From NCBI GenBank assembly GCA_027081275.1, contig JALWKV010000046.1, positions 2,315 through 66,314 on the forward strand: DNA of 64,000 bases, read 5' to 3'. The stretch's first letter is position 1. Each line of letters starts with the position of its first letter. The position numbers and the translations under genes were made by a program. Shown piece by piece: positions 8,276 to 35,226 of the stretch. Origin of the DNA: Gammaproteobacteria bacterium (GTDB lineage: Bacteria; Pseudomonadota; Gammaproteobacteria; UWMA-0217). The notes under the pieces were generated by a model, which did no database searches, was not told the DNA's origin, and saw only the letters and a list, made by a program, of their open reading frames with translations.

Positions 8276-8530
8276 TTGTTTGCCGGGTGGGCTTTGCCTG
8301 ATCTGGCCTACACGATGCGCCGTCAGGCAATGACTGCGATAGCAGGCGAGCCGTACCAATTTACCCTTCGTCCCGCCCGAGCATCGCAGGCCCGGGCGGA
8401 TCAGGCCCGCAGGGGCAGGCCAGGGATGGCCTGCGTTGGCCGCGCGGATGGACGCGTCGGCCAACCCCCGGTCGGGCCGAGAAGCACAGGAAACAGCAGG
8501 ATGAGCGGGCGGCATTTTTTCGCTCCAGTG

Positions 8531-8656
8531 GCCGCTCAGCACGGTTGGATTTTGTTTCAGATCAAGGCATTTTCGCGCACAGCGAGGGCGCATACACGCA
8601 GTATGCAACCGAGCGAGCACGAAAATAACGCAGAGATGGAACAAAAGACGACCGTG
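8531..8656 (-). repeat. Repeat family A (MITE-like, ~135 bp), copy 1
   Basis: Reverse-complement match (~95% identity) to 26483..26621 and 33746..33877. Internal ~25-bp imperfect terminal inverted repeats (ttttgttccatatctgcgttattttc / gaaaatgccttgatctgaaacaaaa). Confidence 0.8.
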
Positions 8657-8698
8657 ATGGGCGGTCACTGTCCCTATTTGTTGCCGTTTACAAAAAGG

Positions 8699-8789: not shown

Positions 8790-9350
8790 CCGTCATTCCG
8801 GGCTTAGCGCAACGGAGACCCGGAATCCAGGCCGAGGTACTGGATTCCCGCTTTCGCGGGAATGACGGTGAATCGGTTCGCCGGGCGTGGGAATATGCTG
8901 ACAGGGAGCAGATACCAGCCACTCTGGGCCATCACGCCATTCCGGGCGGAGTGAAACGGAGACCCGGAATCCACGCCGAGGTATTGGATTCCCGCTTTCG
9001 CGGGAATGACGGTGGGTGAATTCTACGGGCGTGGGAATGCGCTAACAGGGAGCAGATACCAGCCACTCTGCGCCATCACGTCATTCCGGGCGGAGTGAAA
9101 CGAAGACCCGGAATCCATGCCGAGGCACTGGATTCCCGCTTTCGCGGGAATGACGGTGGATCGGTTCGCCGTGCGTGTGAATACGATGATAGCGAGCGGA
9201 TACCAGCCCCGCTGCTCCGTCATTCCGGGCGGAGTGAAACAAAGATCCGGAATCCACGCCGAGGTATTGGATTCCCGCTTTCGCGGGAATGACGGAATGG
9301 GGATTCGACTGGCTTGGGAATGCACTGATAGGGGCGGATTCCCTACTCCT
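8790..9350. repeat. Tandem array of four ~140-bp units (147/143/139/132 bp). Each has a ~78-bp conserved core with nested inverted repeats and a more diverged ~60-bp remainder
   Basis: Core gtcattccgggcggagtgaaacggagacccggaatccacgccgaggtattggattcccgctttcgcgggaatgacgg occurs 4 times. It contains attccggg-N16-cccggaat and ATTCCCgctttcgcGGGAAT, the same form as neisserial dRS3 (ATTCCC-N8-GGGAAT). Abuts the sbcD stop codon. Confidence 0.85.
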
Positions 9351-10584
9351 CCCGACGATCCCCCTCTTCCACCTCCCTCACCACCTCCCGATAGGCATCG
9401 ATGAGAACATCCCGCTGTTCGGCCGGGATGTCATGGCTGTCGAGGCAACGGAGAAAAACGTCGTGGACATCGAGGTCGTCCAGCGTTTCATCCTCGCGCA
9501 TTTTTCCCAGCGCTGTTTCGACGACGCGGTTGTTGCGTATGCGCAGGATCTCCAGTTTCGACTCCGACACCAGTTCTTCCAGCCGCTGGCGCAAGTCGCC
9601 GATGATTTCGTCGCCGTCGTAGCGTATCTCCAGCCAGGCGGCGGCCTGTTCCTCGACCAGCGCGCGGATCGCCGTCTCCAGCGTCGGCCAGTCTCCGCTC
9701 AGGTATTGCAGTCGCTGGAACGTCGGCACATCGAGCAGTTCGACTGTCGGTTGCCGTTCGTCGAACGCGACGAGGCAGAGCGATTTTTTCTGCCCCGCTT
9801 CGCCGAACCCCATTGGCAGCGGCGAGCCGGCGTAGCGGATGTGTTCGGCGCCCCCGACTTTCTGCGGCACGTGGAGATGCCCCAACGCCACGTAGTCGAA
9901 GCAGTCCGGAAATACGGCGCCGCTGACGTGGGCCAGCGAGCCGACGTAGAGTTCGCGCACGCCATCGCCCTCGACGGTTTCGCCGCCGGCGGCGAACAGA
10001 TGCCCCATGCCGATGATCGGTATCTCTTGCCCCAGTCGCTCTTGCAACGCCTGGGCGGCCGCGCCGACGGCGGCGTAGTGGTCGCGGATGCCCTCCACCA
10101 GCTTGCGGGCCTTGTCCTCGGTGCTCTCCCCCGCCTCGGCGCTGCGGATGTCGCGATCGCGCAGATAGGGAACGGCGGCGACGATCGCCATCGGCTCCCC
10201 CGCGTCATTTTCCAGCAGCAGCACCTCCTCCGCCGGATCGGCGGCAGCGGCGCCGATCACGTGCACCGACAGCGCGCGCAACAGCGCCCTGGGCGCATCG
10301 AGGAAGGAGGGCGAGTCGTGATTGCCGCCGATGACGACGACGTGGGCGCAACGGGAGCGGGAGACGCGCTCGAGAAAACGGTAGTAGAGCGCCTGCGCCC
10401 GGTTGCTCGGCGCGGTGGTGTCGAAGACGTCGCCCGCCACCAACAGCACGTCGATGCGCTGGCGCTCGATGGTGTCGGCCAACCAGTCGAGAAAGGCAGA
10501 GAATTCCTCGTAGCGCTTGCGGCCATAGAGGCTGCGGCCGAGGTGCCAGTCGGAGGTGTGGAGAATCTTCAGGGGCGCCGCCAT
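9343..10584 (-). CDS. sbcD: Nuclease SbcCD subunit D (Mre11-like metallophosphoesterase)
   Basis: N-terminal calcineurin-like motifs (ILHTSDWHLG, LLVAGDVFD, GNHDS, GHLH), 413 aa. No sbcC ORF on either side. Confidence 0.85.
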   Translation of the reverse strand: MAAPLKILHTSDWHLGRSLYGRKRYEEFSAFLDWLADTIERQRIDVLLVAGDVFDTTAPSNRAQALYYRFLERVSRSRCAHVVVIGGNHDSPSFLDAPRALLRALSVHVIGAAAADPAEEVLLLENDAGEPMAIVAAVPYLRDRDIRSAEAGESTEDKARKLVEGIRDHYAAVGAAAQALQERLGQEIPIIGMGHLFAAGGETVEGDGVRELYVGSLAHVSGAVFPDCFDYVALGHLHVPQKVGGAEHIRYAGSPLPMGFGEAGQKKSLCLVAFDERQPTVELLDVPTFQRLQYLSGDWPTLETAIRALVEEQAAAWLEIRYDGDEIIGDLRQRLEELVSESKLEILRIRNNRVVETALGKMREDETLDDLDVHDVFLRCLDSHDIPAEQRDVLIDAYREVVREVEEGDRREE

Positions 10585-19798: not shown

Positions 19799-19931
19799 AG
19801 TGACTGCTCAGCTCACCCCTGAAATCCGCCATTTCTGCGTTCGAAAATGGTCATTTACATTTGTAAACTCACATTTTCTGCCTTGAACTGTCGGATTTCA
19901 GAGGCAATCCGAGCAGTCACTGGCCAGACTT
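19799..19931. repeat. Repeat family C, full copy with ~30-bp imperfect terminal inverted repeats
   Basis: agtgactgctcagctcacccctgaaatccg ... cggatttcagaggcaatccgagcagtcact. Related fragments at 23483..23559 and 50801..50866. Confidence 0.65.
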
Positions 19932-22559: not shown

Positions 22560-22580
22560 CGCGCTTCAGTTCTTAAGGAA

Positions 22581-22733
22581 AGTCTGATTTGATCAGACTT
22601 TCCTGCGGCACACGGATGTGCCGCCAGAATCGGCCGCGCCAAGCGATTGATTCTGTGAGAAAAACGAAAATCGCACTTTTCATTTTTCGCCCTCTGACAA
22701 TTCAGGGATGAATTGTTCAGAGGCTCCTTAAAT
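22581..22733 (-). repeat. Repeat family B (~155-165 bp, five consecutive hairpins), copy 1
   Basis: Reverse-complement match to 27363..27517 and 34537..34700. Confidence 0.8.
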
Positions 22734-23484: not shown

Positions 23485-23559
23485 TCACTCAGCTCGTTCG
23501 GAAATACATCCGTAACTGCTCAGATTTCAGGGGTGAGCTGAGTAGTTACCGACCTGTTA
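23483..23559. repeat. Repeat family C, short derivative copy
   Basis: aatcactcagctcgttcggaaatacatccgtaactgctcagatttcaggggtgagctgag shares a ~60-nt block with 50801..50866 and the TIR of 19799..19931. Confidence 0.55.
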
Positions 23560-26432: not shown

Positions 26433-26482
26433 CACATCGGTTTACCTTCGATTGGCCTCCTTTCCGGCGCCGGCGCATAATC

Positions 26483-26621
26483 GGTTGTAACTGCTCAGCA
26501 CGGTCGTCTTTTGTTCCATATCTGCGTTATTTTCGTGCTCGCTCGGTTACATACTGCGTGTATGCGCCCTCGCTGCGCGCGAAAATGCCTTGATCTGAAA
26601 CAAAATCCAACCATGCTGAGC
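26483..26621 (+). repeat. Repeat family A (MITE-like), copy 2
   Basis: ~97% identical to 33746..33877; flanked by gctcagcacgg / ccatgctgagc terminal inverted repeats. Confidence 0.85.
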
Positions 26622-26667
26622 ATTACAACCGGTTTTCGACCAGACACAGCAATGAGGAGTCCCGACC

Positions 26668-27336
26668 ATGCAACCGATCAAACCGATTCTCATCGCCATC
26701 GCCCTGCTCGCGCTTGCCGCCTGCGCCCAGAAGCAGACGCCCGAGGAAGTGGCGCACGGCTTCTGGCAGGCCGTGGTCGACAACGACCTCGATGCCGCGC
26801 GCAAGCTGGCGACCCGCGACTCGCAGAAGAGTCTCGACCTGCTCGACAATCAAGAAAACATGCTCAAGGAGGTAGAAGTGGGCGCGGCCACGATCACCGA
26901 GCAGAAAGCGACAGTGCCGACGACGCTGATCGGCGACGCCGACGGTCACCAGACCCGCATCCAGCTGACCACCTATCTGCGCGAGGAAGACGAGAAGTGG
27001 CGCGTCGAGGGCGACAGGACCGTCAACGCGCTGGTCACCTCCAGCCTCGAAAACATGCTGCGCAACCTCACCGGCGATCTGACGCGGATCGGCGGCGCGC
27101 TCAACCAGACCATCACCACCGGCCTGCAGGAGTTCCTCGGCCAGCTGCAGAAGAATGTGCCGGCGATCAAGCAGGAGCTGGGCAAGCTCGCCGACGAGGA
27201 GAAGGCGCGGACGCTGGGTCAGGAACTGGGGGCGCTGTTCTCGCAGGGGCTGCGCGACGCCATGAAGGAATTCTCCAAGGGGCTAGACGATCTGGAGAAG
27301 GAGCTGGAGAAGGCCAACGCGTCAGAGCAGAAGTAA
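26668..27336 (+). CDS. Lipoprotein with N-terminal DUF4878-like domain and C-terminal coiled coil
   Basis: Lipobox LALAAC then AQKQTPEEVAHGFWQAVVDNDLDAARKL; flanked by repeat A upstream and repeat B downstream. Confidence 0.55.
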   Translation: MQPIKPILIAIALLALAACAQKQTPEEVAHGFWQAVVDNDLDAARKLATRDSQKSLDLLDNQENMLKEVEVGAATITEQKATVPTTLIGDADGHQTRIQLTTYLREEDEKWRVEGDRTVNALVTSSLENMLRNLTGDLTRIGGALNQTITTGLQEFLGQLQKNVPAIKQELGKLADEEKARTLGQELGALFSQGLRDAMKEFSKGLDDLEKELEKANASEQK

Positions 27337-27362
27337 CCGCCCCAGGAGGCTGTCCGACTCAA

Positions 27363-27517
27363 GGAACCTCTGAACAATTCGTCCCTGAATTGTCAGAGGA
27401 CGAAAAACGAAAAGTGCGATTTGCGTTTTTCTTACAGAATCAATCGCTTGGCGCGCTCGATTCTGGCGGCACGTCCGTGTGCTGCAGGAAAGTCTGATTT
27501 GATCAGACTTTCCTTAA
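27363..27517 (+). repeat. Repeat family B, copy 2
   Basis: Five hairpins including cagaatcaatcgc...gattctg and aggaaagtctgat-ttg-atcagactttcct. Confidence 0.8.
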
Positions 27518-30280: not shown

Positions 30281-33200
30281 TCAGTTATAGCGGACCGTCA
30301 CATTCCCCTCGCCGACCCACTGCTCCAGCCGCTTGAGGCATTCATCGGTCGGCGTCACCGCCCACTCCTGGGCCAACCGGATCTCGGCGCGCGCCTTGCC
30401 GTTGATGTAGTTGAGCACCACCGGGCAGCGGCCATCGCGATAGGGCATCAGCAGGCGCGATATCTCCACCGCGCCGCCATTGCCGGCGAGACGGGAACGA
30501 TCGACCCGCAGCTCCAGAAAACGGGCATAGCGCGAGCGGGCGTGCTCGATGTCGTAGAGTTCCCTGCAGCGCAGCCGAAACTGTCCGGAATAGTCGTCCC
30601 AGGCCAGCGAGCCGTCGACAACGAGAATCCGATCCTTCGTCAGCAGATCGGCGTATTTTTCGTACTCCTCACCGAAGAAACTCACCTCGATACGTCCGGA
30701 ACGGTCGTCCAGCGTGACGAAGGCCATCTTGCCGCGGCGTCCGTTGCGCACGCGGATCTCGATGACCAATCCGGCGACGACCACCTGTTTCTCGGCGCCG
30801 CGCCGTCCCTGGGTGGCGTTGTCGAGGTTGAGGTCGGCAATGCGACAGCTGGTGAAGATCTTCAGCTCGTCGAGGTAACGGTTGATCGGGTGGCCGGTCA
30901 GATAGAGTCCCAGCGTCTCCTTCTCATGCTTGAGCCGGTGCATCTCGTCCCACTCCGGCAGCGCCTCGCGCTCGGCATCCTCGACAGTGATGGCCGGGCC
31001 GCCGAAAAGATCGCTCTGCCCCGCCGCGAGATCGCGGTGATGCTGCTCGGCCCGTTGCAGCGCGTCGTCCAGCCAGGCCATCGCGCTGGCGCGGCTCGGC
31101 GTGATGCTGTCGAGCGCGCCGGCGCGGATCAGCGCCTCCAGCACGCGCCGGTTGGTCTTCTGCGTGTTGACGCGGCGGCAGAGATCGTCGAGCGACTGGT
31201 AGGGACCGTTGGCCTCGCGCTCCTCGATCAGGTTCTCGATGGCGCCCTCGCCGACGCCCTTGAGGGCGCCGAGGCCGTAGACGATCGAGCCGTCCGGCAG
31301 CGACGAGAACTTGTAGCGCGAGCGGTTGATGTCAGGCGGAATGACGGTGATGCCCAGATCGTTGCAGTCATCGATCAGCGTCACCACCTTGTCGGTATTG
31401 TCCATGTCCGCCGACAGCACCGACGACATGAACTCGGCCGGATGGTGCTTCTTCAGCCAGGCCGTCTGGTAGGAGAGCAGCGCATAGGCGGCCGAGTGCG
31501 ACTTGTTGAAGCCGTAACCAGCGAACTTCTCCATCAGGTCGAAGATGTAGGTGGCGACATGCTCGTCGACTCCCCGCTCCACCGCGCCGGTGGTGAAGAT
31601 GGCGCGCTGCTTCTCCATCTCCTCCGGCTTCTTCTTGCCCATCGCCCGGCGCAGCATGTCGGCGCCGCCCAGCGTGTAGCCGGCCAGCACCTGGGCGATC
31701 TGCATCACCTGCTCCTGATAGAGGATAACGCCGTAGGTGGGCTTGAGAATCGGCTCCAGATCGGGATGGGGATACTCCACCTTCTGCCGCCCGTGCTTGC
31801 GGTCGATGAAGTCCTCCACCATCCCCGACTGCAGCGGCCCCGGCCGGAACAGCGCCACCAGCGCGACGATGTCCTCGAACACGTCCGGCTGCAGACGCTT
31901 GATCAGATCCTTCATGCCGCGCGATTCGAGCTGGAACACGGCCGTCGTCTGCTGCGCCTTGAGCAGCTCGAAGGTGCCGGGATCGTCGAGCGGAATGCGC
32001 GAGATGTCGAGTTTGTCCTCGTCCGGGCCGCGATGCTCGTTGACCGCTTTGACCGCCCAGTCGATGATCGTCAGCGTGCGCAGGCCGAGAAAGTCGAACT
32101 TGACCAGCCCCACGGCCTCGACGTCGTCCTTGTCGAACTGGGTGACCAGATTGCTGCCATCGGCCTCGCAGTAGAGCGCGGAGAAGTCGGTCAGCTTCGT
32201 CGGTGCGATGACGACGCCCCCGGCGTGCTTGCCGGCATTGCGCGAGATGCCCTCCAGCTTCATCGCCAGATCGATCAGCGCGCGCACCTCCTCGTCCTCG
32301 TCGTAGAGCTTCTTCAGATCCTCCGACGCCTCCAGCGCCTTTGTCAGCGTCATGCCGATCTCGAACGGCACCGCCTTGGCGATGCGATCGACGAAGCCGT
32401 AGGGATGGTCGAGCACCCGGCCGACATCGCGCACCACCGCCTTGGCCGCCATCGAGCCGTAGGTGATGATCTGCGAGACCTTGTCGCGGCCATACTTGCG
32501 CGCGACGTAGGCGATGACCTCATCGCGGTTGTCCATGCAGAAATCGACGTCGAAGTCCGGCATCGACACCCGCTCTGGGTTGAGAAAGCGCTCGAACAGC
32601 AGATCGTAGGCGAGCGGGTCGAGATCCGTGATCTTCAGCGCGTAGGCCACCAGCGAGCCAGCGCCGGAGCCCCGCCCCGGCCCCACCGGGATGTCGTTGT
32701 CCTTGGCCCACTGGATAAAGTCGGCCACGATCAGAAAGTAGCCGGGAAAGCCCATCTGGTTGATGACGCCCAGCTCCGTCTCCAGCCGCTCGTGGTAGGC
32801 GCGGGCACGCTCCTCGCGGTTGTCGCAGCCCTCTGGCAGCAGCACCTTCAGCCGCTCCTCCAGCCCGGCGCGGGAAACCTCGCAGAAGTACTCCTCGGTG
32901 GTCTGGCCGGCGGGGATCGGAAAATCGGGCAGCACCGGCTTGCCCAGATCGAGCGTCACCGCGCAGCGCCGAGCGATCTCGACGCTGTTCTCGAGCGCCT
33001 CCGGAATGTCGGCGAACAGCTCGGCCATCTCCTCGGCGCTGCGCAGATACTGCGCCGCCGTGTACTTGCGCGGACGGCGGCTGTCGCTGAGGGTATGGCC
33101 GCCGTGAATGCAGACCCGCGCCTCATGGGCATCGAAGTCCTCCGGCGAGAGGAAACGGACATCGTTGGTCGCCACCACCGGCACGCCCTCGCGCGCCGCC

Positions 33201-33775
33201 AGCTCGACCGCCGACTTGATGTAGGCCTGCTCGCCGGGCCGCCCGACGCGCTGCAATTCGAGATAGAAGCGGTCGGGAAACAGCGCCCGCCACGCGGCCA
33301 GCTCGGCGGTCGCCTCATCGAGATCGCCCCGTCGCAGCGACTCCCAGAGCTGCCCCTCGAAGCCGCCCGACAGCGCCAGCAGGCCATCGCAGTGCCCCTC
33401 CAGCCACGATCGCGGCATCCCCGGCACGCCGCCGACCTGCCCCTCCTGATAGCTGCGCGAGACCAGCTCGATCATGTTGCGGTAGCCCTGCCGGTTCTGC
33501 GCCAGCAGCACCAGACGGCTCGCCTGCGAAGCGTCCTGCTCGTCGCGAATCCAGACATCGACGCCGAAGATCGGCTGGATGCCCTTGGCCAGCGCGGCGC
33601 GATAGAACTTGACGGTGGCGAAGAGGTTGCTCTGGTCGGTTAGCGCCACCGCCGGCATGCCATCGGTGGCGATCGCCTCCATCAGCGGCTTGATGCGGAC
33701 GATGCCGTCGACCAGCGAGAATTCGGTGTGGAGGCGGAGGTGAACGAAACTCAGCACAGTCGTATTTTGTCCCAT
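30281..33775 (-). CDS. dnaE: DNA polymerase III alpha subunit. ATG at 33775 or GTG at 33757; both lie inside repeat A copy 3
   Basis: 1164 aa; N-terminal PHP domain FVHLRLHTEFSL (E. coli FVHLRVHSDYSM), polymerase core, C-terminal OB fold. Confidence 0.95.
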   Translation of the reverse strand: MGQNTTVLSFVHLRLHTEFSLVDGIVRIKPLMEAIATDGMPAVALTDQSNLFATVKFYRAALAKGIQPIFGVDVWIRDEQDASQASRLVLLAQNRQGYRNMIELVSRSYQEGQVGGVPGMPRSWLEGHCDGLLALSGGFEGQLWESLRRGDLDEATAELAAWRALFPDRFYLELQRVGRPGEQAYIKSAVELAAREGVPVVATNDVRFLSPEDFDAHEARVCIHGGHTLSDSRRPRKYTAAQYLRSAEEMAELFADIPEALENSVEIARRCAVTLDLGKPVLPDFPIPAGQTTEEYFCEVSRAGLEERLKVLLPEGCDNREERARAYHERLETELGVINQMGFPGYFLIVADFIQWAKDNDIPVGPGRGSGAGSLVAYALKITDLDPLAYDLLFERFLNPERVSMPDFDVDFCMDNRDEVIAYVARKYGRDKVSQIITYGSMAAKAVVRDVGRVLDHPYGFVDRIAKAVPFEIGMTLTKALEASEDLKKLYDEDEEVRALIDLAMKLEGISRNAGKHAGGVVIAPTKLTDFSALYCEADGSNLVTQFDKDDVEAVGLVKFDFLGLRTLTIIDWAVKAVNEHRGPDEDKLDISRIPLDDPGTFELLKAQQTTAVFQLESRGMKDLIKRLQPDVFEDIVALVALFRPGPLQSGMVEDFIDRKHGRQKVEYPHPDLEPILKPTYGVILYQEQVMQIAQVLAGYTLGGADMLRRAMGKKKPEEMEKQRAIFTTGAVERGVDEHVATYIFDLMEKFAGYGFNKSHSAAYALLSYQTAWLKKHHPAEFMSSVLSADMDNTDKVVTLIDDCNDLGITVIPPDINRSRYKFSSLPDGSIVYGLGALKGVGEGAIENLIEEREANGPYQSLDDLCRRVNTQKTNRRVLEALIRAGALDSITPSRASAMAWLDDALQRAEQHHRDLAAGQSDLFGGPAITVEDAEREALPEWDEMHRLKHEKETLGLYLTGHPINRYLDELKIFTSCRIADLNLDNATQGRRGAEKQVVVAGLVIEIRVRNGRRGKMAFVTLDDRSGRIEVSFFGEEYEKYADLLTKDRILVVDGSLAWDDYSGQFRLRCRELYDIEHARSRYARFLELRVDRSRLAGNGGAVEISRLLMPYRDGRCPVVLNYINGKARAEIRLAQEWAVTPTDECLKRLEQWVGEGNVTVRYN

Positions 33776-33877
33776 ATCTGCGTTATTTTCGTGCTCGCTC
33801 GGTTACATACTGCGTGTATGCGCCCTCGCTGCGCGCGAAAATGCCTTGATCTGAAACAAAATCCAACCATGCTGAGC
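33746..33877 (+). repeat. Repeat family A (MITE-like), copy 3, filling the rnhB-dnaE intergenic space
   Basis: Spans from the dnaE start region to 12 nt before the rnhB stop (33889..33891). Confidence 0.85.
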
Positions 33878-33888
33878 AGTTAATGTGG

Positions 33889-34551
33889 TCAGTCATCGGC
33901 GATCAGCTCGGCGACGGGACGAAAACTGCGGCGGTGATGCGGGGTCACGCCGAGGCGCCGCAACGATTCACGGTGCTGCGCCGTGGGATAGCCCTTGTGC
34001 TGCTCGAAGCCGTAGCCGGGATATTCCTCGGCCAGCGCCACCATCTCGCGGTCGCGTGTGACCTTGGCGAGAATCGACGCGGCGCAGATCTGGGCCACGT
34101 GGCTGTCGCCCTTGACGATGCAGGTCATCTCCAGCGTCAGCTCGGGGCAGCGATTGCCGTCCACCAGCACGCGGTCCGGCGTCACCTCCAGCGCCTCGAC
34201 GGCGCGGCGCATCGACAGCAGCGAGGCGTTGAGGATGTTGAGGCGGTCGATCTCGGCGACCTCGGCGCGACCGACGGCCCAGCTCAGCGCGCACTCGCGG
34301 ATGTGGTCGCAGAGCTGCTCGCGGCGGCTCTCGCTCAGCTTCTTCGAATCGGCCAGCCCTTCGATGGGGGCGCGATGGTCGAGAATGACAGCCGCCGAGA
34401 TCACCGGCCCCGCCAGCGGACCGCGCCCTACCTCGTCGACGCCGGCGTGGAGCACGCCGGCAGCCTGTTCGCGCTGCAATCGACGCAGCAACGCCTGCTG
34501 CTCGTTCAATGTCATCGGGGCCCACCATGAGTTTATGGAACCTCTGAACAA
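33889..34551 (-). CDS. rnhB: Ribonuclease HII
   Basis: [14 protein letters not shown] active-site motif and DSKKLS; 220 aa. Confidence 0.9.
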
Positions 34552-34700
34552 TTCATCCCTGAATTGTCAGAGGACGAAAAACGAAAAGTGCGATTTTCGT
34601 TTTTCTCACAGAATCAATCGCTTGACGCGATTGATTCTGGCGGTACCTCCTTGTACCGCAGGAAGGTCTGGTCTGATCAAATCAGACCAGACCTTCCTTA
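34537..34700 (+). repeat. Repeat family B, copy 3
   Basis: Same five-hairpin layout. Hairpins 4 and 5 carry paired substitutions relative to copy 2 (ggcaca/tgtgcc to ggtac/gtacc; stem extended in agaccagacc). Confidence 0.8.
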
Positions 34701-34839
34701 TGACGTGGAGCCGGATTCGACGATCCGGCAGCTGCCAGTGGGGAATCATTATAGAGGTTCCGACTCAAAGCAGAAGCCGTGACCGGGATGGCCTCGCGCC
34801 GCCATTCAGCGGCCCCGATTTCAGCTACCCCGTCACATT

Positions 34840-35226
34840 ATGATATTCTGCGCGCAGTTTTCATCAGTCGCTGGAGCCCGCATGAGCACCGAAACCACCC
34901 CCTCAGGCCTCGTCATCGAAACCCTCCGGGAGGGTCAGGGCGAGACCGCCGCGGCCGGCCATCGCGTCACCGTGCACTACACCGGCTGGCTCGAGGATGG
35001 CAGCAAGTTCGACTCCAGCGTCGACCGCAATTCGCCGTTCCAGTTCAACCTCGGCGCGGGCCAGGTCATTCGCGGCTGGGACGAGGGCGTGGCGGGCATG
35101 AAACCTGGCGAGAAGCGCAAGCTGACGATTCCCGCCGAGCTGGGTTATGGCGCCCAAGGCGCTGGCGGCGTCATCCCGCCCAACGCCACACTGATTTTCG
35201 AAGTGGAACTGCTCTCGATCGACTGA
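34840..35226 (+). CDS. FKBP-type peptidyl-prolyl cis-trans isomerase
   Basis: [16 protein letters not shown]...[22 protein letters not shown]...LIFEVELL, a canonical FKBP domain. Confidence 0.85.

Follow-up and report, generated by a model that had tools for sequence, protein, structure and literature searches.

How does an essential gene begin when a mobile repeat lies where its start codon should be? The question is raised by dnaE, which encodes the alpha subunit of DNA polymerase III, in a 64-kb stretch of DNA (the window) that is the sole part of its genome at hand and comes from a gammaproteobacterial metagenome-assembled genome (MAG). Here dnaE (30281..33775, minus strand, from the list of open reading frames (ORFs); 100% match to the public MAG protein P0001) follows rnhB (33889..34515, minus strand), which encodes the 208-aa RNase HII and lies upstream in the same orientation. 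Between the two genes sits one copy of a repeat, family A, whose three copies in the window are named c1, c2 and c3. An earlier note on this DNA had described the copy at this site, c3, as a MITE-like repeat filling the rnhB-dnaE spacer, MITE standing for miniature inverted-repeat transposable element. Our best explanation as a whole, which we regard as highly probable, is that a MITE inserted in the 5' end of dnaE and now supplies its start, with translation relayed from rnhB. The sequence data used throughout come from MAGs or metagenome contigs.

Had relatives carried the same sequence at the 5' end of dnaE, it would have to be taken as ancestral. Four relatives were compared, with DnaE proteins 88% (L001 and L003), 82% (L135) and 72% (L136) identical to that of the window, and the element was absent from the rnhB-dnaE junction in all four. 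In L001 and L003 the genes overlap by 8 nt, the dnaE ATG and the rnhB TGA sharing ATGACTGA (junction sequences ...gATGACTGAgccccgtTTCGTCCAC and ...aATGACTGAtccgggcTTCGTTCAC). The overlap is 11 nt in L135, and in L136 a 9-nt spacer separates the genes. The ancestral arrangement is still legible in the window. The C-terminus of the rnhB product is unchanged (...ADD*), and an RNase_HII Pfam domain is found in the rnhB gene call of L138, a scaffold 99.98% identical to the window. The old dnaE ATG (33896-33894) overlaps the rnhB stop TGA (33891-33889) within an intact gATGACTGAcc (33896-33887). The ancestral ATGACTGA junction is kept at 33896-33889 and is followed by ...ACA, the element and then TTCGTTCAC, and the remnant of the old dnaE 5' end, ATGACTGACCACA (33884..33896, minus strand), forms the same junction as in L001 and L003. 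Because the ancestral junction survives just before the element, the element must have entered codons 2-5 of dnaE, at TGACCACA, creating the spacer; we infer that the TGACCACA at 33891-33884 is the 8-bp target copy beside the rnhB-side end. The repeat at this site is thus a mobile one, of a family with 8-bp duplications, as had been proposed, but it did not fill a pre-existing spacer and instead made one by insertion.

Might the spacer nevertheless be ancestral, or the junction a product of assembly? Repeats can be mis-joined in metagenome assemblies, the only kind of assembly available here. Against both possibilities stand the four outgroup lineages, all without the element and with genes that overlap or lie 9 nt apart, the old ATGACTGA junction kept upstream and the 8-bp duplications around other copies. 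The same junction was also present in an ENA metagenome scaffold (L138, 99.98% identical over 13.6 kb) and in a JGI metagenome contig (L008, 97.9% identical over 3.8 kb). The insertion is thus carried by all three assemblies of the species found, which are independent and derive from different samples and pipelines. With outgroups lacking the element, the old junction retained and three assemblies in agreement, an ancestral spacer and an assembly artefact were rejected as extremely improbable.

The comparison with L008 also bears on whether the allele is functional. Between the window and L008, synonymous differences number 34 in dnaE and 16 in rnhB, and non-synonymous ones number 5 (conservative) in dnaE and 4 in rnhB. 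Because synonymous changes in dnaE so outnumber non-synonymous ones and both strains carry the insertion, purifying selection must have acted strongly on dnaE ever since the element inserted. The element itself differed at only 1 of 135 positions, against approximately 7% at synonymous sites (P of one or fewer differences = 6e-4), a low divergence which is compatible with constraint.

An insertion of the canonical kind would not have left a working gene. We reconstructed it as ...GTGCTGAGTAGTTAC-TGACCACA-nn-TTC, which places an in-frame TGA before dnaE, has no start codon between the two and leaves the GTG of the element out of frame. The present copy (c3, 33749-33883) retains 135 of 141 bp. 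Its rnhB-proximal end reads TTAACTG... where the consensus has GTAACTG..., and its dnaE-proximal end lacks the terminal GTAACT. These 6 nt and the second target copy are missing, and GTGCTGAGT abuts TTCGTTCAC directly. The present structure would be accounted for by a loss of approximately 16 nt, made up of the 6 nt of the repeat end, the missing target copy and some 2 nt from dnaE. As a result, ...ATGGGACAAAATACGACTGTGCTGAGT runs straight into TTCGTTCAC (FVH...) in one frame, and both GTG 33757 and ATG 33775 are now in frame with dnaE. Since plain insertion leaves an in-frame TGA and no start codon, it appears to be this deletion, or an imprecise insertion, that made the allele viable. With one of its ends disabled, c3 is probably immobile.

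Which codon, then, starts dnaE? Both ATG 33775 and GTG 33757 lie inside c3, in agreement with the earlier note, and they are the only starts between an upstream in-frame TAA (33805-33803) and the conserved motif FVHLxLHTEFSLVDG. A downstream start was also looked for, but the next one in frame is Met26, which was rejected as the real start as it lies beyond this motif. The start of dnaE must thus be element-derived, because an in-frame TAA lies upstream and no other start precedes Met26. The first host-derived codon of dnaE is TTC 33748, which encodes the F of FVHL. Initiation at the ATG gives MGQNTTVLS|FVHL, with 9 element codons, and initiation at the GTG gives MLS|FVHL, with 3; the earlier figure of 6-9 codons is corrected accordingly. 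Both N-terminal lengths fall inside the natural spread of 60 homologues. In the NCBI annotation of P0001, whose protein is identical to the DnaE of the window, the start is GTG 33757.

We next consider how ribosomes would reach such a start. Neither ATG 33775 nor GTG 33757 has a good Shine-Dalgarno sequence, leaving unsupported the suggestion that the element also supplies the ribosome-binding site. The ancestral dnaE start in L001 and L003 is likewise without a Shine-Dalgarno sequence and relies on the overlap with rnhB. In a predicted fold, the 161-nt rnhB-dnaE stretch of the mRNA has a free energy of -62 kcal/mol, the unpaired probability of GTG 33757 is approximately 0 and ATG 33775 is partly paired. 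The old dnaE ATG opens a candidate relay ORF of 37 codons (33783..33896, minus strand). This ORF crosses the 5' arm of the element hairpin and then the loop, and its stop, a TAA (33785-33783), lies 7 nt before ATG 33775. A stop-to-start gap of 7 nt is a geometry typical of reinitiation.

Up to an element-derived start, the account given here is shown by comparing sequences. In the mechanism we propose from there on, the element in the mRNA would fold as a hairpin of approximately -60 kcal/mol, burying GTG 33757 and partly ATG 33775. On completing rnhB, ribosomes would initiate at the former dnaE ATG, which in this view is still coupled to the rnhB stop, and would unwind the hairpin as they translate the 37-codon element ORF. 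They would then stop at the TAA and reinitiate at ATG 33775 by termination-reinitiation, producing a DnaE beginning MGQNTTVLSFVHL. When a ribosome is modelled on the TAA, the ATG lies inside its footprint and the GTG is still in the 22-bp basal stem. This scheme shares with known translational coupling and termination-reinitiation the ATGA-type rnhB-dnaE overlap, which is preserved, and the short gap before ATG 33775. It differs in that the relay ORF comes from a transposable element and would also melt its own hairpin.

On the modelled fold we favour this relay from rnhB through the element ORF to dnaE, and its main rival is direct initiation at the GTG. In that case the start would be equally element-derived, but a 30S subunit would bind directly at GTG 33757 (MLSFVHL...), helped by a weak GGGA 12 nt upstream. 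The hairpin would breathe or be opened by ribosomes finishing rnhB, and the 37-codon ORF would play no part. The public annotation of P0001 does start at this GTG, the resulting 3-residue lead before FVHL is as in several homologues (e.g. MQQFVHL in P0019) and the GTG is part of the conserved terminal repeat. By contrast, the fold places this codon in the 22-bp basal stem, paired even with a ribosome at the ORF stop, and the GGGA is both 12 nt off and itself paired. Direct initiation is thus a real possibility, though one we consider short of probable.

A second rival dispenses with the hairpin altogether. If an outward-facing promoter within the element drove dnaE, no hairpin would form in the mRNA and the start would be accessible. 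Promoters arise in this way from Correia elements and other MITEs. MITEs and insertion sequence (IS) ends are known to create promoters (PMC3184786, PMC10969869), and the insertion puts 131 nt between dnaE and rnhB. However, a consensus scan of 33500-34900 for promoters and terminators gave nothing in the element, with no sigma70-like site on either strand, its only match being upstream of rnhB (34864-34837). A transcript from the 3' arm would moreover have a very short leader and no Shine-Dalgarno sequence. We consider such a promoter unlikely.

Several points weigh against a relayed, element-derived start and against reading selection into the element. The 37-codon ORF and its TAA are in the same frame and at the same stop in the element consensus, and their presence at dnaE is no sign of selection. 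The relay and the efficiency of reinitiation are drawn from sequence and fold, the choice of start codon from sequence, and the NCBI annotation picks the GTG for P0001. The 16-nt deletion is a reconstruction in which the breakpoint is ambiguous by up to approximately 3 nt and the ancestral codons 4-5 of this lineage are not at hand. As the source is a MAG, a second dnaE-like gene may exist elsewhere in the genome. The element may differ so little between strains for other reasons, and a neighbouring repeat of another family (family B) also shows 0 differences in 148 nt. With these points in mind, we put forward only tentatively, and as rather doubtful, the further idea that this MITE copy has been co-opted as an obligatory dnaE initiation region via the relay ORF, with conservation of the element reflecting selection on the device.

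What kind of element is family A? The window contains exactly three matches to a 26-nt core, against none in 100 shuffles, and the three copies reported earlier are real, although their coordinates had to be redrawn. The first, c1 (8528-8668), is reversed relative to the other two and has degenerate ends (GTGACCGCCCATCACGG...GCTGAGCGGCCAC). The second, c2 (26487-26626, 140 bp), has near-intact ends and lies between genes, 42 nt ahead of a gene start; its 8-bp flanking duplication reads AATCGGTT at 26479-26486 and AACCGGTT at 26627-26634. The third is the dnaE copy. By repeat finder and BLAST, c2 and c3 are 97.7-98% identical over 129 nt and c1 is approximately 94% identical to each. A metagenome scan with a 20-nt core returned 9 contigs from one JGI sample, containing seven new loci, the dnaE locus of a related strain and a c1 orthologue. 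Family A thus comprises 10 distinct loci, three in the window and seven in metagenome Ga0256832.

Alignment with the seven additional copies showed that the outermost letters of the element are GTAACT...AGTTAC, 6 nt beyond the gctcagcaYgg previously taken as its outer ends. The intact length is 141 bp, with inverted ends GTAACTRCTCAGCAYGG...CCATGCTGAGCAGTTAC in the seven copies whose ends are intact. The inverted repeats are not confined to terminal stretches of approximately 25 bp as first described. The entire length is an imperfect palindrome, predicted to form one long RNA hairpin (minimum free energy -67.4 kcal/mol, z = -7.4). Aligning c3 with 16 other copies (69-100% identity) revealed compensatory double changes at 15 of 36 predicted pairs across the 17 copies.

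The flanks were checked for target-site duplications, and 8-bp matches were found around the copies at 8/8, 7/8, 7/8, 6/8, 6/8, 4/8 and 4/8 positions, the perfect one being TCCGGCGC. Six-frame translation gave one frame open across approximately 46 codons and none longer, with no ORF of transposase size. The peptide of this frame (...CVIFVLARLHTACMRPRCARKCLDLKQNP...) recurs in the spurious public gene calls P0121-P0124, in line with the recurrent spurious peptide noted earlier; no contig encoding P0124 was retrieved. Family A thus has the traits of a MITE, being small, with no transposase-size ORF, with terminal inverted repeats and 8-bp target duplications, and dispersed over unrelated loci. 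Identity as REP or REPIN was rejected. Those are GC-rich palindromes or doublets of approximately 20-40 nt, with no target duplication and an associated RAYT gene, whereas the element is 141 bp long, has an interior AT-richer than the genome and shows clear 8-bp duplications. Searches against Rfam gave no family at gathering thresholds across the whole window and none at E <= 1 for c2, and blastn of the element consensus against PLSDB plasmids gave no match. A 23-nt internal core had no match in GTDB representative genomes; either the representatives do not include the species, or the one standing for it does not contain precisely this word.

Several metagenome copies (L011, L012, L013, L014 and L015) lie 1-12 nt from ORF ends, by purely mechanical ORF calls. 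In L015 (400-432) the element begins 1 nt past the stop of an ORF ending ...KYKHCHGKLA*, and the duplication contains the stop codon. We take this ORF end to be a SecA-like C-terminal zinc motif. No positional preference of the other copies was established, the mechanical survey of ORF context being too noisy in GC-rich DNA.

The ends of family A point to the machinery that presumably moved it. One end, GTAACTGCTCAGCA, and the other, GTGACTACTCAGCA, are identical to the published 14-nt terminal repeat of ISDge4, as compared with the text of the paper rather than with an ISDge4 sequence record (PMC12898284). ISDge4 of Deinococcus geothermalis belongs to the ISBst12 group of the IS66 family, encodes a single 449-aa transposase and is flanked by the 8-bp direct repeat CCTCGATG (PMC12898284). 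Repeats of the IS66 family start GTAA... and generate 8-bp direct repeats (PMC11946415). Because the ends match the ISDge4 repeat and the duplications are 8 bp long, family A is a MITE with ends of the ISBst12 type. A transposase of the ISBst12 group presumably acts on it in trans, with 8-bp target duplications as the outcome. With ISDge4 and the ISBst12 group it shares the terminal repeat, the GTAA start and the duplication length. It differs from ISDge4 in being only 141 bp long, in carrying no transposase gene and in having as its interior a long imperfect palindrome unrelated to coding sequence. Less favourably for mobilisation in trans, the idea derives from terminal-repeat identity in a paper and not from a partner in this genome, and neither the window nor any fetched locus yielded an ISBst12-type transposase. 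The search for an autonomous partner covered pairs of orphan terminal repeats separated by 0.7-4.5 kb and large ORFs beside orphan repeats, and no convincing candidate emerged in the window and more than 130 fetched loci.

Family A resembles other bacterial MITEs (Correia/CREE, RUP, ERIC and Nezha) in its small size, terminal inverted repeats, target duplications and copy number, as well as in its long hairpin, mostly intergenic sites and co-transcription with neighbours. It differs from them in its ends and duplication length. Correia and RUP are associated with TA targets.

Elements with such ends are not confined to this species. GTDB representative genomes were scanned for two 13-nt ends 90-120 nt apart (loci L016-L134), revealing elements of 116-146 bp bounded by GTAACTRCTCAGC...GCTGAGYAGTTAC at no fewer than 119 loci. 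Among the matches listed, the hosts were Chloroflexota, Acidobacteriota, Gamma- and Zetaproteobacteria, Firmicutes, Desulfobacterota and Elusimicrobia, and 65 of 120 elements had perfect 8-bp duplications. Over these 120 elements the flanks matched at 80% per position at length 8, compared with 32-41% at the other lengths tested within 4-11 nt. Because a 2024 review of prokaryotic MITEs nowhere mentions IS66 (PMC10969869), this cross-phylum superfamily with ISBst12-type ends, present in at least seven bacterial lineages, appears to be little described. Its conserved, covarying hairpin might be kept for action at the RNA level.

How recently has family A moved? Recent mobility had been read from the high identity between copies. 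Some other copies have near-perfect duplications, which point to fairly recent transposition, but identity alone is no proof of it: c1 is conserved in place, and the three assemblies found for the species all carry the insertion at dnaE. Three further assemblies (L004, with which L009 shares its contig, L005 and L006) have the old copy c1 at the same locus, with degenerate ends and no clear duplication. Against L004 (576-716) the element was 97.2% identical and the non-coding flanks only 83-85% (Fisher p = 5e-5). Because c1 sits at the same locus in relatives and is better conserved than its flanks, the high inter-copy identity would partly reflect conservation and not only recent movement. 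This suggests constraint on c1 and a possible structured RNA or regulatory role. Gene conversion was rejected as the cause, since c1-specific variants are retained in its orthologues.

The kind of event at dnaE is already known, and it is the location that is unusual. In-frame fusions of repeats with genes have been documented for RPE and, at 5' ends, for BOX, RUP and SPRITE, and the Neisseria REP2 and Borrelia IR repeats provide a promoter and a ribosome-binding site as well as an ATG (PMC3184786, PMC10969869). In each, as here, a palindromic repeat gives codons to an intact host protein; here the start codon is among them. Unlike RPE insertions, which are internal and read through in frame, c3 contributes 3 or 9 terminal codons to DnaE and the rest of it forms leader. 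Unlike REP2, which carries its own promoter and ribosome-binding site, neither was found in c3. Here, in contrast to these fusions, the insertion struck an essential replicase and displaced both its native start and the coupling of its translation. What is unusual is that the start of this replicase was hit and that an outward-reading start codon of the element rebuilt the gene; a relay ORF replacing direct translational coupling may be a further novelty.

The locus represents an essential gene that survived a transposon hit in its first codons, with a start codon from the element and a small deletion rebuilding the 5' end. The rebuilt allele became established in the species and dnaE stayed under purifying selection. 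It offers a concrete case for replacement of a start codon, possibly with relay translation, by a mobile element, and if the relay is true, DnaE synthesis depends on a transposon-supplied ORF. As a by-product, a widespread MITE superfamily has been defined (116-146 bp, GTAACTRCTCAGC ends, at least 119 loci). The findings also carry a warning for annotation, as the element makes spurious database ORFs and it is uncertain where dnaE starts in this species.

The window contains other repeats as well. Beside c1, a tandem array (8791-9361) comprises four 144-nt units that are 73-88% identical. The units are also present in the orthologous contigs L004-L006 and yield spurious ORFs such as P0124. Family B, with a length of approximately 150 nt, has copies at 22573-22732 (reversed), 27361-27517 and 34532-34679; it consists of five consecutive short hairpins and has ends TTAAGGAA...TTCCTTAA. 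Its third copy stops approximately 17 nt upstream of the rnhB ATG (34515). The FKBP-rnhB spacer is 366 nt here and 122-236 nt in relatives, and the family B copy accounts for the excess. Its identity to L008 over 148 nt compares with 5 differences in 218 nt in the rest of that spacer. The order of family A, a gene of approximately 0.65 kb and family B occurs twice, at 26487-27517 and 33749-34679. The A-to-B distance is 874 nt for the pair around an unrelated plus-strand gene (26668-27336) and 783 nt for the pair around rnhB. The repeated order may be due to chance, or the two families may share a preference for inserting in short spacers where genes end.

The window also contains family C, a palindromic element of approximately 122 bp (19800-19921) with a solo end at 23512-23549. 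Its ends begin GTGACTGCTCAGC and GTAACTACTCAGC and have the terminal motif of family A, whilst its interior differs (...TCACCCCTGAAATC...). Relatives of family C with 84-87% identity were found in GTDB gammaproteobacterial MAGs (L055 and L097). Several MITE families of this genome probably share one mobilising transposase.

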